This document shows, in pieces, positions 26,978-38,203 of a DNA stretch of 38,203 nt. The notes under the pieces were generated by a model, which ran no database searches, was not told where the DNA came from, and saw only the letters and a program-made list of their open reading frames with translations. This DNA comes from Candidatus Poriferisocius anaerobius (GTDB lineage Bacteria > Actinomycetota > Acidimicrobiia > Acidimicrobiales > Bin134): contig JAPYOG010000290.1 in the NCBI GenBank assembly GCA_028278785.1, forward strand, positions 1 to 38,203. Direction: 5' to 3'. Position 1 is the first letter of the stretch; each line of letters starts with the position of its first letter. Position numbers and translations under genes: made by a program.

Positions 26978-29161
<2,184 letters not shown>

Positions 29162-29343: not shown

Positions 29344-29419
29344 CTGACGGGGTGGTGTTCCCGCCGCACGCATGGACCGTGCCCGAACCTCGACACCGGC
29401 GTCTGTAGAATCCCCTGCC

Positions 29420-31108
29420 ATGGATGAGTTGCCAGTTTCTGGCCGTGGTTTTCGACTGCTGCTCGGCGCGGTCGTCTTGTTGGTTTTGGTGGTTGTCGTG
29501 CAGGCGGTCTTGTTGATCGTGCTGGCAGTTGGCGATTCGGAGGGGGAGGGTGGTTCGGCTTCCCCGTTGGGAGTGCCCCCTGCCGTTCCCCCCATTCCGG
29601 TCAGCGCAGCCGCGGTCGGCGGTGAAGCGGGCGCGCCTGAGGAAGCGGGGAATCCCGTTTCTGTGTTGTCGGGGGCGGTTCACTATGTCACCTATCTGGC
29701 CGAGCAGGGTTTTGTTCCTGAGCGCTTGGAGGTCGAGGTTGGGGAGACGGTGGTGTTTGTGAATGCGTCGGGCGCGGATTTCTGGCCGGCTTCAAATATT
29801 CATCCGACGCATGAGATTCTGCCCGCGTTCGATTCGCTGGGGCCGGTTCCGGCGGGGCAGGCATGGGAGTTCGTGTTCGATGAGGCGGGCCAGTGGCAAT
29901 ACCACGACCATCTGTACCCGCCCGAGGGCGGTGTGGTCATCGCTGTTGAGGCCGTTGCCGCCGAACCCGGCGCCGGAGAGGGGTTGGGAGAGGCTGTGGA
30001 TGGGGAGGCCGGCAGCGGCGATCTCGGCCCGCGGGGCGAGCTGGGGCCGCTGGTGATCGAGATGCCCGATGTTGAGTTCGCCGAGCTTGCCGGGGACGCG
30101 GCTGACCGCTATTCGGGGATCTATGCCGACGACGGTGAACTCGAGCGGGTCGTCGAGGAGTTCGGGCCGTCGAACGCTCTGAGGATTCTCAAAGCCATCG
30201 AGCTCGAGACCAGCGGAGACTGTCACAACCGTGCTCACGATGCCGGACGGATTGCCTATGAGCTGTTCGGACCCGCAGCGTTCGCGCTGGCGTCCCATGA
30301 GTGCCAGTCGGGCGGTTTCCACGGTGCGACCGAGGCGCTGTTCGCGAGCCGCGGCACCGCGAGCCTTGCCGAGGATGTGGCTGTTTTGTGCTCAGATGCC
30401 CCTAACCCGTTTATCCGCCACCAGTGCCTGCACGGGATCGGGCACGGGATCATGGCCTGGTCGAACTACGAGCTGCACCAGTCGCTGGAGTTGTGCGACG
30501 CGATTGCCGCATCGCTGGACCAGCAGTCCTGCTACTCGGGGGTGTTCATGGAGAACGTGGTCGGAGGGCTCAGCGGCCTCATGGGCCACACCACCGAGTA
30601 CCTGCGCCCCGACGACCCCGTCTATCCGTGCGACGTGGTGGCCGACCGGTACCGGGCCGACTGCTACTTCTACCAGACCTCTCACATGGTCCGAGTGCTC
30701 GATTACGACATGGCCGCGGTCGCCCAGACCTGCACCGAGGCCCCGGCGGGCTCGGCCTATCACTGCTTCGGGTCATACGGTCGAGATGCCGCATCCTTCG
30801 CCCAGAACGACCCCGCTGCCTCGATCGAGCACTGCAAGCACGCCCCGACCGCTGATCTGAACGCGGCATGCACGCGCGGGGCCGTGCAGAACGGCTTCTG
30901 GGAAAAGCCCGGAGCGCCGCGGGCGGTGCAGTACTGCGCGCTGTTGGACAGCGACCCCCAAAGTCATCCGGTGAGTCGGGAAGTCTGCTACCAGACCATC
31001 ACCGACAGAGCACGCGACGTCTTCGGAACAGCCGAGGAGTACGAGCAGTTCTGCGCTCAGCTACCAGCCGACCGCCACGCCGCTTGCCGCCAAACACTCG
31101 GCTTGTAG
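29420..31108 (+). CDS. Membrane-anchored protein: cupredoxin-like domain plus Cys/His-rich helical domain
   Basis: N-terminal TM; GFVPERLEVEVGETVVFVN..ASNIHPTH..WQYHDHL; then CHNRAHDAG, CQSGGFHG, CLHGIGHG, CYSGVFMEN, CYFYQ; TAGAAT -10 8 nt before the ATG. Confidence 0.8.
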   Translation: MDELPVSGRGFRLLLGAVVLLVLVVVVQAVLLIVLAVGDSEGEGGSASPLGVPPAVPPIPVSAAAVGGEAGAPEEAGNPVSVLSGAVHYVTYLAEQGFVPERLEVEVGETVVFVNASGADFWPASNIHPTHEILPAFDSLGPVPAGQAWEFVFDEAGQWQYHDHLYPPEGGVVIAVEAVAAEPGAGEGLGEAVDGEAGSGDLGPRGELGPLVIEMPDVEFAELAGDAADRYSGIYADDGELERVVEEFGPSNALRILKAIELETSGDCHNRAHDAGRIAYELFGPAAFALASHECQSGGFHGATEALFASRGTASLAEDVAVLCSDAPNPFIRHQCLHGIGHGIMAWSNYELHQSLELCDAIAASLDQQSCYSGVFMENVVGGLSGLMGHTTEYLRPDDPVYPCDVVADRYRADCYFYQTSHMVRVLDYDMAAVAQTCTEAPAGSAYHCFGSYGRDAASFAQNDPAASIEHCKHAPTADLNAACTRGAVQNGFWEKPGAPRAVQYCALLDSDPQSHPVSREVCYQTITDRARDVFGTAEEYEQFCAQLPADRHAACRQTLGL

Positions 31109-31167: not shown

Positions 31168-31824
31168 TCAGGGGCCGAGGGCCGTGATGGGGGTGACCTG
31201 GACGCCGTCGGGGCGGGTATAGGCGAAGCCCAAAGCGGTGATGACCACCATGGCGACAAGCTGTTCGGCGCGGTCAGCAGCCACCTTGTCGCGCACGCGT
31301 CGCAGCGACTGGGCCGCGGCCTCGATCGCGTCGCCGCCCCCCAGCTTGACCTCTACTGCAAGCCACCTCCCGTCGGGCACCTCGACGATGGCGTCGGCTT
31401 CGGTGCCCGCAGCGTCGCGCAGCTGGAAGATGCGCCCGTCGTGGGGCTGCGCTAGGACGCGCAGATCCCTCACAACGAGTGACTCGAACAGCAGGCCGAG
31501 TGCGGACATATCGCCCATCAGCCGCTCGGCATTGGCGCCGAGAGCGGCAGCCGCTAGCGATGGATCGGCCAGATGCCACTTGGCCGACTTCCGCAACGGT
31601 GCCCGAGAACGCAGGCGGACCGACCACGCGGGCTGTTCTTCGACCACGAATATCCGCCGCAACGCGTCGAGGTAGGCGCGAACCGTGTGGCGGTGCAGCG
31701 GATCCGGCTCCGCATCCGCGCCCAGCGTGCTCATGCTGGCTTCGGTCGCAACGTTTCGCGCCAGCGACTGGAGCAACCGCTCCACACCGGCGGGACTTCG
31801 CACGGCGCCATCGCCGACGAGCAC
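31168..31824 (-). pseudogene. C-terminal fragment of an AAA-ATPase/DUF4143 protein
   Basis: TVRAYLDAL..K.HLADPSLA..GLLFESLV..EADAIVE..AVEVK; the N-terminal P-loop is absent. Confidence 0.8.
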
Positions 31825-31884
31825 GCTCGGCTTCGAGTGCTGCTACTACATGAGCCTTCGATCCGCTCGAAAGCCTCTTCGGTC

Positions 31885-32237
31885 GGCGGCGGCCCCCGTG
31901 ACCAGACAGCCATCACCATTTCCGACCCCGAGGTTGAGAATGCCTGTGTGAACCGGTGCAAGGCATGGCAGCGCACCAAGTACGACGGCGGCTGGGGCGC
32001 CATCACCTGGCCTGCCGAATACGGCGGCCGGGGACTGAGCGGCATCCACGACGGTATCTTCAAGGAGGAGGAGGCCAAGCGGGTGTCGGCCACCGGGGTG
32101 TTCGCGGTGGGCATCGGCATGACCGGCCCCACCATCATCGCCCACGGCACCGCCAGCCAAAAGGAGCGGTTCCTGCCCGCCATGCTCAAGGGCGAGGTGG
32201 TGTGGTGCCAGCTTTTCTCTGAGTCGGTGGCCGGGTC
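31885..32237 (+). pseudogene. N-terminal fragment of an acyl-CoA dehydrogenase
   Basis: AWQR..GGWGAITWPAEYGGRG..GPTIIAHGTASQKERFLP..WCQLFSE, after which similarity stops. Confidence 0.8.
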
Positions 32238-32299
32238 TTTTCTCATCCCAGCCCTCGGGTGCCTCTTCGGTGTACATGATCCCGGCGGTCAGAAGGTGT

Positions 32300-32654
32300 G
32301 CGACGCCAAGCGCCCGATGAGGATCGTCATGCGATCGGGCGTGCCCTTTGCCTTCGCCGGACTGTGGTCAGTGTGGACCGATCCCGAAGGCAACCGCATT
32401 CCGTCGCGCACCATCATCACCACCGCGGCAAACGAAGTGCTCAAGCCGATCCATCATCGGATGCCGGTTATCCTGCCGAAGAGGCGGAGGGCCTCTGGCT
32501 GGACACCCACCTCGACGACAGCGACGCGTTGGCCCAACTTCTCGAGCCATCCTCCGCCGACGCTATGGAAGCCTATGATGTATCCCGCTTGGCGAACTCG
32601 GCGTCCAACGACCTCCCCGAGGTAACCGCGCCGCTGCCTCAACTCCCCTTCTAA
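32300..32654 (+). pseudogene. C-terminal fragment of an SRAP (SOS response-associated peptidase), frameshifted at ~32477
   Basis: PFAFAGLWSVW..TIITTAANEVLKPIHHRMPVIL, then in another frame WLD..LLEP..MEAYDVSRLANSASND. Confidence 0.85.
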
Positions 32655-32671
32655 ACTGGTAGTTTGGGCCT

Positions 32672-33232
32672 ATGCGGTTGGAACGGGCTGTGGGCTATGG
32701 CGCGCTGGTCAGCACCGGCGTACTCATTGCCCACGCATTCGGCTATCTGATCGCCTATTCCAGCGCTGCCGACCGCAGCATTGCTCTGGCCGGACACGCC
32801 TACTTTGGCCCGACAGCCTGGGTGATCATCCCGCTGGCCTCGCTGCTCATCGCCGCGGTGGTGGTCCGGGCCGCAGCTCGCAGCGCGGTCGCCGGGTTCC
32901 GGCCGGGAGTGGTGTCGGCTGCTGTTATGGCCGGATTCTTCGCACTCGAGGTACTGGAGCGCGTACCCGCCGGTGAGCACCATGCCGCGTTCACCGAGCC
33001 CGGCGTGGTAGTCGGCCTGATCCTGTCGCTTCCAGTGGGATGGGTGCTGGCCAAGCTCGCCCGAAGCATCGAGCGCATTGTCGAGGCCATCGTCAACAGC
33101 TCCCGGCGCCGGTGGTCCCGCCAGGTGGTGCTGGCCGCCCTAGTCGAGGCACTGGCGGCAAACATTGGGCGGTTCTTCAGCCTGCTTCCCTCTCCCCGCG
33201 GTCCTCCCGGGCTGCGTGTTCTGACCATCTGA
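32672..33232 (+). CDS. His-containing ~4-TM membrane protein with a C-terminal RGPP motif
   Basis: AHAFGY and GHAY in TM segments; ends SLLPSPRGPPGLRVLTI; TAGTTT -10 6 nt before the ATG. Confidence 0.75.
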   Translation: MRLERAVGYGALVSTGVLIAHAFGYLIAYSSAADRSIALAGHAYFGPTAWVIIPLASLLIAAVVVRAAARSAVAGFRPGVVSAAVMAGFFALEVLERVPAGEHHAAFTEPGVVVGLILSLPVGWVLAKLARSIERIVEAIVNSSRRRWSRQVVLAALVEALAANIGRFFSLLPSPRGPPGLRVLTI

Positions 33233-33260
33233 CCTGAACACGCCCCTAAGAGAGGAGCCC
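33200..33260 (+). promoter_or_regulatory. Candidate SD-sequestering hairpin between the RGPP gene and the lipoprotein gene
   Basis: Perfect stem GCGTGTTC (33214-33221)/GAACACGC (33236-33243); GGTCCTC (33200-33206) or GGGCT (33209-33213) can pair with GAGGAGCCC (33252-33260). Confidence 0.5.
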
Positions 33261-33263
33261 AAA

Positions 33264-34115
33264 ATGAAATCAACTCGCTATGCGCGGGGGCTGGTCGGCC
33301 TGCTGGCCATTCTCGGCTTGCTGGCCGCCGCCTGCGGCAACGACGACACTGTGGGACCGGCGCCGACGACCGACCCCACAATCGCCCCCGAGACCCCGCA
33401 ACCCACTGCCAGCCATTCTGACGAAATGGCCATGGAGGAAACCGACGACGATCACGACCGCGATCGCGGACACGACCACACCACTCTGATGGAGGTGGGC
33501 TACGAACCGGTGCCCACCATCGAGCTCAAAACCCACCTCGACCCCGCATCGGGCGTCAACCTCGAGATCATTACGACTGGCTTCACCCTGGCGCCTGAAA
33601 GAGCCTCGACCGACCCGGTCGACGGAGAAGGGCACTTCCACATCTATGTGGACGGGGTGAAGCTCAGGCGGACGTACGACCATTGGGCCCACGTCGGTCT
33701 CAAGGAGCCCGGCGACTACGAAATCCGAGTGGAGATGTCGGCTAACAACCACGCCCCGCTAGCGGTGAACGGAGAAATCCTCGATGCCACCGCCGTGGTG
33801 ACCATTACCGGTGCTGCTGAGGATTCTGAACCCATGGAGATGGAGGACAGCGTGGGTACCACCATCGAGCTAGAGGTGGTTGGCGGCAAACCGGTGGACG
33901 GGGTGCAGCGCTTCGGGGTCGACGCCGGAGACGACGTCACCATCGTCGTGAACGGCGATACCACCGACGAGCTCCACTTCCACGGCTACGACTTGGTGGT
34001 GCCCTTCGCTCCGGGACAGCCCGGCACCATCACTTTCGAGGCCAACATCCCCGGCATCTTCGAGGTGGAGACCCACCACCACGGTGATCTGGTGATGGAG
34101 CTCCAAGTGGGATGA
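33264..34115 (+). CDS. His-rich lipoprotein with a GHxH domain and a C-terminal cupredoxin-like domain
   Basis: Lipobox LAAAC; DHDRDRGHDH linker; GEGHFHIYVDG, NNHAP; DELHFHGYD..GIFEVETHHH. Confidence 0.8.
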   Translation: MKSTRYARGLVGLLAILGLLAAACGNDDTVGPAPTTDPTIAPETPQPTASHSDEMAMEETDDDHDRDRGHDHTTLMEVGYEPVPTIELKTHLDPASGVNLEIITTGFTLAPERASTDPVDGEGHFHIYVDGVKLRRTYDHWAHVGLKEPGDYEIRVEMSANNHAPLAVNGEILDATAVVTITGAAEDSEPMEMEDSVGTTIELEVVGGKPVDGVQRFGVDAGDDVTIVVNGDTTDELHFHGYDLVVPFAPGQPGTITFEANIPGIFEVETHHHGDLVMELQVG

Positions 34116-34128
34116 TCCCGTTGCGACC

Positions 34129-34510
34129 ATGCTGAATGCCGTGCCAGCCCACGGGGTGGGGGCGCGGGGCGACTTACCCCTGCCGTTCTACCTGTTCGGC
34201 ATCGGCGCGGCTGCGGGCGCCTTTCTCAGGGTTGACTACCCTGACCCCCCGCATCGACCTGCTGGCCGTGCTGTTGGTGCTGCTGGGCGGCACCACTTTC
34301 GACTCGCTGGCCAGCAGCACCCTGTGGCCCGATCTGGTCGGCACCCCCCGAGGCTGGACCTCCACCGGCATCAACACCGCAGGAATGATCGTCGTCATTG
34401 CGATCATGGCCGCGCTCTACTACCTGGGGTCGCTGGCCGTGGGCTGGTTCACCGAGCAGCCAGCCTCCGAAGTAGCCCGGCGCTTCGCCCACTCCCTGGT
34501 ACCCACGACA
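34129..34510 (+). pseudogene. Internally deleted and truncated actinobacterial membrane protein of the HG..RxDLPLP type
   Basis: AHGVGARGDLPLPFYLFGIGAAA in one frame jumps to a later region (LLGGTTFDSL..RRFAHSLVP) in another frame, then stops. Confidence 0.6.
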
Positions 34511-34689: not shown

Positions 34690-36093
34690 CTATCCAACCT
34701 GGTGTGTGGGGACCCGTAAACCTTCTGGGTCCGCGGTCTGGCGGGTTGTTTCGGAGGTTCTCCACTCTTCGGCCAGGGCCTCGGCGTGGAACTCGGTGAT
34801 GATGTTCGCCAAGCCCATCCCGGGGAGGGCTTCGCGGAACTCGCCGGGGGTTATGTAGAAGAACTCGCGGCGCAGGTTGACGAGGTTGACGCGCTTGTCA
34901 GCGAAGTGGCGGTGGAGCCTGGTTTCGAGATCGACGGCGTCCTCGGCGAATACGAGGGCGTGGAGGTCGTAGCCGAAGGGCACCGAGGCGTCGCCCAGCT
35001 CCTTGACGCGGTCCATCGGTTCGAGGCGTCTCGTCATGCCGATCTTGACCATCCGCTCGCCGAATGAGCCGATGTTGGAGATGACGTACACGTATCCTGC
35101 CCTGATGTTGGCCGCCCGGTAGTCCACGGTCTCGATGGCGCTGTCGAGTTCCTGGAGCTGGACTTCGAGCGCGGCGATGTCCTCGGCGCTGCCGCTGGAA
35201 GCGCGCAGTGAGGCGAGAGTCTGCTGGTAGTGGGCCTGCTCCTTGCGGAGGCGCTCGCGCTCGGCTTCGATCTCCTTGCGGGCTTTGGCCTCTTCTCTGA
35301 GCCGGGACCGTTCCTCTTTGGCCGCCTCTTTCTCCTCTTCCTTCTTGGCGAGCCAGTCGGCGACCAGTTCGAGTTCGAGGCGGCGCGTTCTGTGGTAGTC
35401 GGCCGCAATGGAGATCTCCATGGGCTGAGCGCCGAGCCGGTCGATGATGCGTCGCGACTGGTCGATCTTGTCGAGGGCGGCGTCGAGGCGGAAGGGGCGC
35501 ATCTTGTCCACGAGGGCGGCGGCCTCGCTGTTGTAGGCGCGCAGCAGCAGCTTGGATGTGTCATTTATCATCTTGCGGCCCTTGGCGGCGCTGTTGTTGA
35601 CATGCCACTCGGCGGACGTGGTCGTGACTGCCGTCTTCTCCTTGACCATCTCCTTCATGCGCGCCCGAATGGCCTTGAGCCGGTCGGCGTAAGCTGCGGC
35701 GTCCTCAAGGGCGTGCCGGTACTGGTACACGCCGACCTCCTGGAGCATGACCGTGTCCTCGGTGGCGATCACCTCCTCTCGCAGCTCTGCAAGATACTCG
35801 CCCGCCTCGACAGCCTCGGTCCGCGCTCGGGCGGCCTCTGCCTCGGCCTGTACTCTGGCGGCGTCGGCCTCGGCCTTTGCGGCAGTGAGCTGGTCGATGA
35901 GCTCGCTCATCTCGTCCACGGTGGCTTGCAGGCCCTGGGGAGTCGCCAGCTCGGCGAGCTGGGAGACGGCGGTGTGGAGCTGCTCGATGTCGGCGAGCAT
36001 CTTCTTGCGCCCGCCGAGCCGCGGGTAGTCGCGCGTCCGCACGGTGTCCAGAACATTGGCGATGCGGGGACCCCGAGGGGCAGCGTCGGTCAT
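34690..36093 (-). CDS. DUF4041 + T5orf172/GIY-YIG protein (PD-Lambda-1-like putative anti-phage nuclease)
   Basis: LQEVGVYQYRH, W.VNNSAAKGRKM..LLRAYNSE, coiled coil, AGYVYVISNIGSFGE..VKIGMTRRLEPMDRVKELGDASVPF..LE..LH..VN..REFF. Confidence 0.88.
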   Translation of the reverse strand: MTDAAPRGPRIANVLDTVRTRDYPRLGGRKKMLADIEQLHTAVSQLAELATPQGLQATVDEMSELIDQLTAAKAEADAARVQAEAEAARARTEAVEAGEYLAELREEVIATEDTVMLQEVGVYQYRHALEDAAAYADRLKAIRARMKEMVKEKTAVTTTSAEWHVNNSAAKGRKMINDTSKLLLRAYNSEAAALVDKMRPFRLDAALDKIDQSRRIIDRLGAQPMEISIAADYHRTRRLELELVADWLAKKEEEKEAAKEERSRLREEAKARKEIEAERERLRKEQAHYQQTLASLRASSGSAEDIAALEVQLQELDSAIETVDYRAANIRAGYVYVISNIGSFGERMVKIGMTRRLEPMDRVKELGDASVPFGYDLHALVFAEDAVDLETRLHRHFADKRVNLVNLRREFFYITPGEFREALPGMGLANIITEFHAEALAEEWRTSETTRQTADPEGLRVPTHQVG

Positions 36094-36339
36094 GGCCGGG
36101 TATGCTATCGCCCTCGCCGGTTTGCAGTCCATTGTCACACCCCAATTCAACGCACAGAGCTCCGCATGGGAACGCCGTGGACCATGTAGTAAACGGAGGC
36201 CAGGCTCAGTAGGTTGGGAGCTGAATGTCGAATGTGCCAACCAAGAATGTTCTAACCCAGGCTCTTTGGACCCAGGCAGGGAATCAGCGATCCACATCGT
36301 TCGTCATGTCTCTGGGTGGGCATGCGTAAATCGTCAGCC

Positions 36340-36599: not shown

Positions 36600-36691
36600 C
36601 CAATGGCCACGATGCACAACAGCCCCGCTTGTTTGCGCGGGACGGTGAGATGGGTGCATTTGCTTCTATGGAGTTTGTCAACAGGTCCTAG
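36600..36691 (+). mobile_element. Possible decayed IS5-type right end
   Basis: tttgtcaacaggtcctag resembles IS5-family termini ending at CTAG; weak likeness to a transposase tail (VHLLLW). Confidence 0.3.
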
Positions 36692-37764
36692 AGTGCAGGT
36701 TCCCCTAGGTCTGTTCCAGGCAATTCAGCCGATGTTCTGGATTTTGTTTCCCCGTCATCAGGAATGCTTATGGTCCTCACGAGCAGATCGACGATCCCTT
36801 GGCCGCGTGGGTGCTCTGACCGGATCAATGTGATGCTGAATCCGCCGACAATCAGCCCGAGGAGGACAACGACGATTGCTGTGTAGGCGGAGTAGTAGTG
36901 TATGTCGTTTTCGCGGGAAATGGACTCTATCGATTCCAAATAGAAGAGAGCGAAGATCGCCAACGCGGGAGCGGTGGCAACAAGTGTCCTGAATGAAGCG
37001 TAAGGCAAACTCAAGCTTTCGCCGGAGCTTTGCCTTATGACCTTGACCTTGCAAACCCGCTGTCCCACCGTGCCCCCGAACACAGAAGTTCCAACCGACT
37101 GATAAACAAAGCAGACCAGGGCGGCAACAATCCATGGATATAATGGCGGGCTGCCTTGATCCCCTTCAACATAGAAGGAGGCAAAGATTCCCACGGTTGC
37201 AATAGCAGCAATTGACAGGAGTATCCACATTGCAAAGTCAATTACCCAGGGAAATGCAGAAGCCCGAGGAGGATATTCGCCGCCTTGAGGGTCAAATGTA
37301 TGAGAGACAGCGTTGAGTATGGTCGTCGACGACAGCAGCCACGCCATAGACGCAAGAAGCGAAGAAACGGCCACCATAGCAGATATGTCACGAGCCGTTC
37401 CCGGCGGCAGCGCCGGCAATACAAGGGCAGAGGATGAGAATATGAGAGCCAAACCGGTAAGCACACACTTCCGCAACCCGATTTCGGCCAATGACATCTT
37501 CTTGTGAAACTTTTGCAGCATAGCTGCACACAACATGACAATTACGCTGAAAACCAATTTGTCCAATCGACCGAAGAGCGTGACATAGTCCACAAAGTCG
37601 CGATGAAGCCAAATGATATAGACGAAGAGATACGCGGACATCACGACAGCAATCACGACCGGCATGGGATGCTTCCTGAAACCCTTCCAACCCACGCCCT
37701 TAGGGTCTAGGTCGTACCGTGTCCTCTGTCGCAGACGCCAAGCCAAATCAGCTACGGCTGACAT
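36688..37764 (-). CDS. RDD-family membrane protein (lower GC)
   Basis: Multiple TM segments; RASAFPWVIDF, GGTVGQRVCKVKVI, FRTL, GQGIVDLLVRT. Confidence 0.75.
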   Translation of the reverse strand: MSAVADLAWRLRQRTRYDLDPKGVGWKGFRKHPMPVVIAVVMSAYLFVYIIWLHRDFVDYVTLFGRLDKLVFSVIVMLCAAMLQKFHKKMSLAEIGLRKCVLTGLALIFSSSALVLPALPPGTARDISAMVAVSSLLASMAWLLSSTTILNAVSHTFDPQGGEYPPRASAFPWVIDFAMWILLSIAAIATVGIFASFYVEGDQGSPPLYPWIVAALVCFVYQSVGTSVFGGTVGQRVCKVKVIRQSSGESLSLPYASFRTLVATAPALAIFALFYLESIESISRENDIHYYSAYTAIVVVLLGLIVGGFSITLIRSEHPRGQGIVDLLVRTISIPDDGETKSRTSAELPGTDLGEPAL

Positions 37765-37808: not shown

Positions 37809-38203
37809 TCTCACGAAAAGGGGGGAAGCTCAGGTCTGACGGCTTTCGGACTCTTCGGTCGTGCATTGGGGTTGCGACCGGTTGGATGCGGTTTACGACC
37901 GGCGCTGCGGAGGGTTGCGACCGGTCGCGGCAGGTGCCGTGGTGCATGATGGCGGGCATGAGCAAGGTTCTTGGCCATCTGCGGGCAGTGGGTTGCGGCA
38001 GTGCTGCTCGTGTTGGCGGGCCAGGGATGCGGGCTGTGATAGATGTATATTTCTCAGATCGACTCTGGCATATTTCTCATATGGGCTCTGTCGAAGTTCT
38101 GACAGGTCTGGGACCGGTGTTCTCGACCCGGGAGTTCGAGCGGGCGGCCGGGGTGCGCCCGTCTTCGGCGTCGCGCGCACTGGGGGAGTTGGCGGCCGGG
38201 GGC

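Follow-up and report, generated by a model that had tools for sequence, protein, structure and literature searches.

A putative RGPP translation-arrest leader ahead of a cupredoxin-type lipoprotein gene, with arrest codons complementary to the downstream Shine-Dalgarno sequence

How might the synthesis of a small membrane protein control the translation of the gene that follows it? The question is raised by the open reading frame (ORF) at 32672-33232 of a 38,203-nucleotide stretch of DNA from Candidatus Poriferisocius anaerobius, a sponge-associated member of the Acidimicrobiales that is uncultured (contig JAPYOG010000290.1); the stretch is hereafter called the window. This ORF ends in PSPRGPP, with RGPP as residues 176 to 179, followed by 7 residues, and its stop codon lies 31 nucleotides (nt) before the ATG of a lipoprotein gene on the same strand. 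An earlier note on this DNA had pointed to this tail, to a perfect 8-bp stem that encloses the stop codon and to a possible pairing of the RGPP codons with the Shine-Dalgarno (SD) sequence of the lipoprotein gene, and had supposed that a ribosome stalled at RGPP exposes that SD. We consider it likely that the ORF is a regulatory sensor-leader of the RAPP/RGPP translation-arrest class, with SD unmasking as its output. The most useful new point is family-wide, position-specific codon evidence for arrest codons that mask the downstream SD. The leader is a member of a large unnamed family, distinct from DUF2946 and lacking a Pfam model, that comprises about 1,000 clusters.

Arrest-site codons and the downstream Shine-Dalgarno sequence

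The tail and the stem are read directly in the sequence and the ORF list, and folding bears out the pairing. In the centroid fold of 33170-33290, the SD is paired through its GAGGA with UCCUC (33202-33206), part of the Gly-Pro-Pro codons, and a second helix joins GGG (33209-33211) to CCC (33244-33246). In the minimum free energy (MFE) structure of the same segment, the partner of the SD is instead CCUCUC (33188-33193), in the Pro-Ser-Pro codons. Both partners lie within the ∼30-nt footprint of a ribosome with its P site at 33203. The 8-bp hairpin, which had been proposed as the SD occluder, does not hold the SD; the predicted occluders are the Gly-Pro-Pro and Pro-Ser-Pro codons.

Codon usage at the motif was compared with that at other positions across the family. 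The first proline of the motif, predicted to occupy the P site, is encoded by CCU in 36 of 81 loci; for comparison, CCU encodes the first proline in 13 of 75 other Pro-Pro pairs and accounts for 55 of the 845 remaining proline codons of these ORFs. In the Gly or Ala codon just before this proline, a third-position U or A is far commoner than in the background (25 of 42 Gly codons versus 23%), and an anti-SD-like pentamer is present at ≤24 nt from the Arg codon in 49 of 81 loci versus 12 of 81 control segments.

The complementarity was assessed against a null of synonymous recodings that keep the protein and the local codon usage, with a footprint that begins 9 nt ahead of the Arg codon and runs to 21 nt past the first base of that codon and, as its partner, the region just upstream of the next start. 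This start, recognized by an SD and a hydrophobic N-terminus, was picked automatically and could be set in 67 of 83 loci, the other 16 being left out. The real footprint outpairs its recodings in 50 of the 67 loci (mean z = -0.98; 21 loci in the 5% tail; Wilcoxon p = 6e-7). In a position control, segments 30 to 150 nt upstream gave mean z values from +0.11 to -0.27, compared with -0.93 at the arrest site. Moreover, cognate footprint/SD pairs reach -16.0 kcal/mol versus -14.5 kcal/mol for swapped pairs, and none of 5000 permutations reaches the observed mean. On this comparative evidence, the predicted arrest-site codons are under selection at synonymous sites for complementarity to the SD, family-wide and in a position-specific manner, which supports the supposition that stalling exposes the SD.

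A partition-function model was used to estimate the accessibility of the SD in several states of the RNA. In the window, the modelled probability that the SD is unpaired is 0.11 in the free RNA, 0.49 with a ribosome stalled at RGPP, 0.07 with a ribosome 45 nt upstream and 0.27 with a terminating ribosome. Averaged over the family, this probability is 0.25 for free RNA, 0.35 when the footprint is blocked and 0.27 when a ribosome sits 45 nt upstream, and a terminating ribosome gives 0.37.

In 59 of 67 loci, the RNA from the motif to the SD has more structure than dinucleotide-shuffled versions of itself (mean z = -1.85; z = -1.7 in the window). In most relatives the main hairpin starts about 32 nt after the P site, usually just past the stop codon, the exceptions with a near hairpin being the window (+11) and two lipoprotein-type relatives. 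The 8 close loci keep both the hairpin and the SD helix, with 91% of cells paired and one compensatory pair. Conservation of the hairpin, which the earlier note had named as a check, is seen in these close loci, where it is inseparable from conservation of the sequence itself. We rejected the hairpin as an intrinsic terminator because no U tract follows its stem, and a terminator scan makes no call there.

A stall at RGPP could also act on transcription: the ribosome would block the loading of Rho or prevent the hairpin from working as a terminator or attenuator that lacks a U tract, and SD masking would then be secondary. CruR of Bordetella pertussis works through Rho-dependent termination (PMC9426467). 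The stable motif-to-SD hairpin described above is found family-wide, usually at the place just past the stop codon where a terminator or pause element would sit, and in the window its 5′ arm would be covered by the stalled ribosome. However, the intergenic space is short, 31 nt here and with a family median of ∼80 nt from the P site to the start, which leaves little room for a rut site; the stem lacks a U tract and the terminator scan is negative; and a transcriptional output does not predict complementarity to the SD at the codon level. We regard such an output as unlikely and, with moderate confidence, favor SD unmasking as the output of the stall.

The leader family, its motif and its putative sensor

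The window leader has no Pfam family at E ≤ 0.1 and no NCBIfam match, and none of the 63 family members that we aligned (24-35% identity) matches a Pfam family at E ≤ 0.01, PF11162 (DUF2946) included. A word-based search returned 16 close homologues, all of ∼186 amino acids (aa) and all metagenomic. In a whole-genome search the gene is patchy: it is carried by 10 of 61 relatives, namely the source genome (G000), 8 of 36 other genomes of the same genus and a single genome that belongs to the same order but to a different family. A distant copy in genome G047 (34% identity, 180 aa) ends in PAAPRGPPRRPDA at its stop codon and is followed by genes for a homologous lipoprotein and a ∼440-aa membrane protein, an arrangement also found in genome G008.

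Beyond these relatives, a profile search against 1.84 billion representatives gave 957 proteins at E ≤ 1e-3 and 89 at E ≤ 1e-10, nearly all of them 170 to 210 aa long. The 63-sequence alignment is matched at E ≤ 1e-5 by 101 of 401 genomes sampled across the phylum; eight of these genomes, all matching, are flagged unpublished, and the count without them is 93 of 393. Loci L018, L019 and L033, from unpublished genomes, were left out of all later counts, and with 60 further loci added, a recount with a hidden Markov model covers 88 loci of published genomes. The entries returned by a later profile search and a cluster look-up are all metagenomic and either unnamed or called "hypothetical protein", with one labelled Acidimicrobiales, and Protein Atlas gave solely unnamed Actinomycetota clusters for the leader. 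A Foldseek search of its AlphaFold2 (AF2) model against the PDB found nothing at E ≤ 0.001.

Conservation of RGPP in homologues, which the earlier note had named as a check, is observed both near and far from the window. LLPSPRGPP is kept in 15 of the 16 close homologues while the preceding residues 143-168 vary, and the exception (P0016) looks frameshifted, because its tail matches the +1 frame of the window sequence. Outside the starting clade, R(G/A/S)PP is found near the end of 146 of the 148 representatives listed (RGPP 98, RAPP 46 and RSPP 2), and in 143 of these 146 the motif lies 1 to 10 residues from the C-terminus. This conservation is not due to profile bias, since 52 of the 54 matches whose alignment ends before profile position 170 still carry the motif; the two without it are a 118-aa fragment and a 287-aa protein aligned at its N-terminus only. 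Among the 88 loci of published genomes, R-x-P-P stands 1 to 10 residues ahead of the stop in 86, as RGPP in 44, RAPP in 39 (83 canonical motifs) and RSPP, RDPP and RPPP in one each; two loci have none. The RDPP, RPPP and RSPP variants are those of loci L079, L104 and L037 of other genomes, and at the two motif-less loci, L045 and L071, the frame runs on and may be shifted.

The 1 to 10 residues after the motif are not conserved and the 40 residues before it vary freely. Only seven columns of the 63-sequence alignment are invariant, namely His21, His42, Glu93, Glu96, Arg176, Pro178 and Pro179.

We also counted the motif in a crude ORF set of the source genome (1,799 ORFs, 625,244 residues), in which RGPP occurs 5 times and RAPP 6 times and the permuted tetrapeptides RGPA (21), RGAP (28), GRPP (26) and PPGR (17) are commoner. 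Four of the five RGPP occurrences fall within the first ∼30 residues of ORFs that are probably over-extended, and the leader is the only ORF with RGPP near its C-terminus. On contig C78 of the same genome (4497-5652, minus strand), a 385-aa ORF that is tyrosine-recombinase-like by eye ends in ...TRAPPC, with RAPP one residue before the stop; it is probably not a regulatory leader, because no same-strand gene lies behind it in the crude ORF map.

The AF2 model of the leader (predicted local distance difference test score, pLDDT, 87.4) contains helices at residues 2-28, 32-42, 45-69, 78-97, 110-147 and 150-171, and together with hydropathy it gives four membrane helices. By the positive-inside rule, the Arg-rich stretches found at the N-terminus and between helices 2 and 3 point to a topology with both termini inside. 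Under this predicted topology, His21, His42, Glu93, Glu96 and the near-conserved Glu109-Pro110 would be found at the outer face. The earlier note had placed histidines in the membrane segments, which is only partly exact: His21 is in helix 1, His42 is at the edge of helix 2 and His103/104 are in a loop. The note's statement that CxxC is lacking holds, since the leader protein has no cysteine at all. With CxxC absent and two His and two Glu as the invariant residues, these sequences can fairly be read as those of a His-based (His/Glu) sensor that differs from CruR and CutF.

The distances between these residues and the motif are nearly constant in the 63 sequences: from Glu96 to Arg176 the median is 80 residues (standard deviation 2.0, range 76-88) and from Gly115 to Arg176 it is 61 residues (standard deviation 1.8). 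The linker from helix 4 to the motif is thus fixed in length and unconserved in sequence. Judging from hydropathy, the AF2 model and the spacing, helix 4 ends ∼48 residues before the P-site proline, a position that would put it just outside the ribosome at the moment of arrest.

Downstream genes, proposed mechanism and state of the locus

The product of the gene behind the leader had been described as a metal-binding lipoprotein. Neither Pfam nor NCBIfam assigns the leader, the lipoprotein or the third gene to a family, the sole match being a weak NosZ C-terminal hit on the lipoprotein. The lipoprotein combines a linker rich in His with a DUF4399-like domain (GEGHFHIYVDG) and, at its C-terminus, a cupredoxin-like domain (HFHGYD...ETHHHG). 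Its AF2 model (pLDDT 82) matches, in Foldseek, the cupredoxin domains of N2O reductase, nitrite reductase and multicopper oxidase with E values of ∼1e-7, and some homologues carry PF14347 (DUF4399) or PF13473. Inside the lipoprotein gene, at 33456-33769, contigs of two public sequencing runs skip 312 nt (104 codons, in frame); the relative G014 lacks about the same part, and many homologues have only 160 to 200 aa. From these run contigs, G014 and the short homologues, the DUF4399-like domain seems to be present or absent between strains.

Across the family, an exported metal-protein gene on the same strand is always found behind the leader in the loci examined. At Pfam's curated cut-offs, the 67 downstream products include CopC+CopD (2), CopC (3), DUF1775/YcnI (3) and PCu(A)C (1), and most of the others fall, by reading of the sequences, into two groups, one of ∼220-aa exported proteins that begin with His and one of cupredoxin-like proteins or lipoproteins. 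This second group consists of small cupredoxin-like proteins or lipoproteins of the window type, followed by the 440-aa membrane protein. None of the 67 loci examined has a Sec or YidC component as its downstream gene. The common theme of the downstream genes, as judged from their sequences, is extracytoplasmic copper handling.

The commonest cargo of the leader family is the unnamed ∼220-aa exported protein, whose mature form, by our reading of the signal peptide, begins with His (A-x-A|H...). It has a conserved VG(F/W)xxEPAY motif and gives only weak YtkA or FixH matches; it is found at loci L021, L023, L024, L029-L031, L034, L036, L038, L039 and L043 and at about 30 more. We consider it a candidate for a new His-first family of copper-binding proteins.

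In the mechanism that we propose, the nascent 186-aa protein would insert into the membrane as four helices with both termini inside, and the ribosome that reaches Arg176-Gly-Pro-Pro179 would stall there, its P site occupied by CCU (33203-33205) and its A site by CCC. We regard arrest at the RGPP of the leader as probable. The stalled ribosome would cover about 33189-33218, and with it UCCUC, CCUCUC and part of the 8-bp hairpin. Because these pyrimidine runs are otherwise predicted to be paired with the SD, GAGAGGAG would be free only during the stall, and the cupredoxin-type lipoprotein would then be translated. The invariant His21, His42, Glu93 and Glu96 at the outer face would most likely bind metal, and we regard copper as a reasonably probable ligand. 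If helix 4 packs differently with metal, the force on the nascent chain would change, and with it the length of the stall; the fixed distance to the arrest point (61 ± 2 residues) suggests that helix 4 is being inserted at that moment. As to the sign of the response, we lean slightly toward a metal that releases the stall and turns the gene off, as with CruR, rather than one that causes the stall, as with CutF. The most detailed version of this scheme, in which the x-Pro-Pro codons are selected toward (U/A)CCUCC, a copy of the 16S anti-SD, the hairpin serves as a clamp and a His2-Glu2 sensor is read out through the insertion of helix 4, is plausible but tentative.

The same geometry would suit a monitor of membrane insertion, that is, a sensor of YidC or Sec load in which the insertion of helix 4 alone releases the stall, with no sensing of metal. 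The ∼48 residues between the end of helix 4 and the P-site proline correspond to a distance at which, in force-profile studies, inserting helices pull on the nascent chain. Release of this kind is the mechanism of the classical arrest peptides (PMC7897499). However, the genes behind the leaders handle copper and are never those of Sec or YidC in the 67 loci, and the invariant residues (His, His, Glu and Glu) are of the metal-ligand type, so we find an insertion monitor quite improbable. Finally, RGPP might serve the structure or the interactions of the mature protein, for example as a cytoplasmic tail motif; the protein would then be just a working subunit of the copper module, without regulatory stalling. 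The protein is long (186 aa), well folded in its model and endowed with invariant polar residues, and it may well have its own function after release. We nevertheless find this reading very improbable: R-x-P-P stands at a fixed distance from helix 4 behind a hypervariable tail, the 1 to 10 residues behind the motif are unconserved, RGPP is reported as the most excluded bacterial tetrapeptide and as stalling in every tested context (PMC12992588), and the synonymous sites at the motif appear to be under SD-related selection.

Several observations weigh against our preferred reading of the locus as an arrest leader that unmasks the SD. Taken alone, the window has a recoding z of only -0.23, and the 121-nt fold (33170-33290) is unexceptional (z = -1.02). 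The modelled gain in SD accessibility is modest for the family (0.25 to 0.35), and a terminating ribosome does as well (0.37). The excess of CCU could reflect a tRNA preference for stalling and not RNA pairing, and the p-values overstate the case because the loci are related and share G+C content. The downstream starts were set by an automatic rule, with 16 of 83 loci excluded for want of a clear start. In most relatives the hairpin is beyond the reach of the stalled ribosome, which makes the geometry of the window (+11) atypical, and in the 8 close loci 149 of 500 shuffles equal its observed value, so that it is not separable from plain sequence conservation. The third gene of the module is broken in the source genome, and the operon may be decaying for that reason. 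A search of public sequencing runs listed no RNA or ribosome-profiling run that contains the locus.

The features of the locus are collected in Table 1. The fragmentary contigs of four public DNA runs have no listed difference from the window at 33197-33266, an agreement that does not bear on expression. A scan of 32000-34500 against Rfam gave no match at E ≤ 1, and a scan of 32300-34300 for sigma-70 promoters gave no site, a scan that covers actinobacterial promoters poorly and is therefore silent on an internal promoter.

Table 1. Features of the leader/lipoprotein locus, in window coordinates
Feature	Position	Strand	Description and basis
Leader/sensor gene	32672..33232	+	ATG ORF, 186 aa, four hydrophobic helices, ends in LLPSPRGPPGLRVLTI at the stop codon; ORF list, hydropathy, AF2
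His21 codon	32732..32734	+	Family-invariant, helix 1; 63-sequence alignment
His42 codon	32795..32797	+	Family-invariant, G-H-x-Y motif before helix 2; 63-sequence alignment
Glu93-x-x-Glu96 (E-V-L-E, then R)	32948..32959	+	Both Glu invariant; outer end of helix 3 (predicted)
CCUCUC (Pro-Ser-Pro codons), alternative SD partner	33188..33193	+	MFE fold; inside the footprint of a ribosome stalled at 33203
RGPP codons CGC GGT CCT CCC (Arg176-Pro179)	33197..33208	+	Predicted arrest site; sequence, motif conservation
UCCUC, anti-SD-like	33202..33206	+	Inside Gly-Pro-Pro codons; paired with GAGGA of the SD in the centroid fold
Predicted P site, CCT	33203..33205	+	By analogy with CruR toeprints (PMC12992588)
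Predicted A site, CCC	33206..33208	+	By analogy with CruR toeprints (PMC12992588)
Hairpin, 8-bp perfect stem, 14-nt loop	33214..33243	+	Arms GCGTGTTC (33214-33221) and GAACACGC (33236-33243)
Leader stop codon TGA	33230..33232	+	In the hairpin loop; sequence
Shine-Dalgarno GAGAGGAG of the lipoprotein gene	33250..33257	+	6 nt ahead of the ATG; unchanged across 8 close loci
Lipoprotein gene (putatively regulated), 283 aa	33264..34115	+	ATG at 33264; lipobox LLAAAC
Third-gene remnants (membrane protein, ∼440 aa in relatives)	34132..34504	+	blastn and tblastn against L012, L014 and L015

In the source genome the leader and lipoprotein genes are intact. The third gene, which is intact in G008 and G047, survives as two fragments (34132-34290 and 34178-34504) with a ∼600-nt internal deletion compared with relatives, and homology ends at 34505. 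Protein Atlas attaches to it an automatic "fenitrothion hydrolase" label, which we take as a lead only. Homology to relatives resumes only at 37833, and the DNA between 34505 and 37833 holds, both on the minus strand, a DUF4041/T5orf172 (GIY-YIG-like) gene at 34690-36297 and an RDD-family membrane gene at 36688-37764. Contigs of public DNA runs diverge from the window at ∼34205 and ∼34505.

Upstream of the leader, 31573-32654 is a mosaic of fragments, in which an N-terminal piece of an acyl-CoA dehydrogenase is fused in frame to pieces of a SRAP peptidase, with a frameshift; about 1.3 kb of a 90%-identical relative is missing from the window there. Farther upstream, a 578-aa ORF (29372-31108) has an N-terminal membrane anchor, a stretch that is cupredoxin-like by eye (EVEVGETVVFVNASG...HPTH) and a C-terminal half rich in Cys and His. 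Pfam and NCBIfam give no match for this ORF, which adjoins a catalase-peroxidase-type gene at 26978-29161.

Relation to known arrest leaders

Arrest-peptide leaders are a recently recognized means of coupling extracytoplasmic events to the translation of the next gene. The present family adds a comparative data set to this field, with its invariant His/His/Glu/Glu residues, its fixed spacing and its copper-gene context, and it offers a concrete mechanism in which the arrest codons would act as an anti-SD. It also allows the annotation of hundreds of "hypothetical proteins" in Acidimicrobiia and other Actinomycetota, and it flags unnamed cargo as probably involved in copper handling, namely the DUF4399-like/cupredoxin lipoprotein, the 440-aa membrane protein and the ∼220-aa His-first family. 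If our reading is true, a new family of ∼1,000 clusters is defined, and the anti-SD proposal would explain for the first time, on the basis of sequence, by what means RAPP/RGPP leaders that are not DUF2946 proteins act on the genes behind them. A limited search of the literature did not find in print a reading of the arrest codons of RAPP/RGPP peptides as an anti-SD.

The window leader resembles SecM, MifM, VemP, ApdA, ApdP and ApcA in that a C-terminal arrest sequence is combined with an N-terminal localization signal. The arrest motifs are RAGP in SecM, RAPP in ApdA and ApdP and RAPG in ApcA (PMC12992588). In SecM the stalled ribosome unmasks the SD, whereas for ApcA, ApdA and ApdP the authors found no SD-sequestering hairpin (PMC7897499). 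These peptides regulate Sec or YidC components and sense protein export, in contrast to the window leader, whose cargo is a cupredoxin-type lipoprotein.

Two further systems belong to DUF2946. CutF of Rhodobacter capsulatus, which melts a stem-loop that shields the next ribosome-binding site, shares with the window leader sensing across a membrane, on our reading of the latter, but differs in family, ligands and phylum, being a DUF2946 protein with Cys ligands from a proteobacterium that undergoes a copper-induced stall (Ozturk et al., bioRxiv 10.1101/2025.02.05.636593). CruR (Bp2923) of B. pertussis has R-x-P-P three to seven residues before its stop and heads a copper operon, and its conserved spacing from CxxC to RAPP is analogous, not homologous, to the spacing from Glu96 to Arg176 (median 80) described here (Roy et al., mBio 2022, PMC9426467). 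However, CruR is an exported DUF2946/PF11162 protein with a signal peptide, senses copper through CxxC and blocks Rho-dependent termination within a 162-bp spacer (PMC9426467), whereas the window leader spans the membrane with four helices, lacks Cys, does not match PF11162 and is followed by a spacer of 31 nt in which the SD is predicted to be masked.

The nearest precedent is the class of leaders described by Fujiwara et al. (EMBO J 2025, PMC12992588). According to that report, RAPP and RGPP are strongly excluded from proteomes and concentrated near the C-termini of small secretory or membrane proteins, and such leaders stand upstream of genes for TonB receptors, YcnI, PCu(A)C and PepSY proteins, notably in Actinomycetota. 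All seven of the Streptomyces lividans candidates (7/7) arrest in vitro and in vivo, RGPP being the strongest core; one of the arresting leaders, SLIV_18480, has four transmembrane (TM) segments and conserved histidines, and a metal gene follows it. The report leaves open if arrest controls the genes behind such leaders, and by what route (PMC12992588).

The window leader has the hallmarks of this class: it is shorter than 300 aa, has TM helices and RGPP near its C-terminus, lies close to a same-strand copper-type gene, comes from an actinomycetotal genome and belongs to a family in which the motif is conserved while the region adjacent on its N-terminal side varies. The window leader's own peptide strings have no match in the part of the supplement text of PMC12992588 that was searched, and its cargo, a lipoprotein with DUF4399-like and cupredoxin domains ahead of a 440-aa membrane protein, is outside the groups that are named in the parts of that paper available to us. 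A 193-aa RAPP leader upstream of a DUF1775 gene in source-data file 6 of the same paper has, by eye, H-x3-Y, GHGY, E-x-x-E-R and EP, as in the window family. In those parts, Fujiwara et al. group their leaders by downstream annotation and define no homologous family, His2-Glu2 invariants or fixed spacing. The kind of leader is thus already in print (CruR in 2022, the CutF preprint in 2025 and Fujiwara et al. in 2025), and what is newly delineated here is the family itself.

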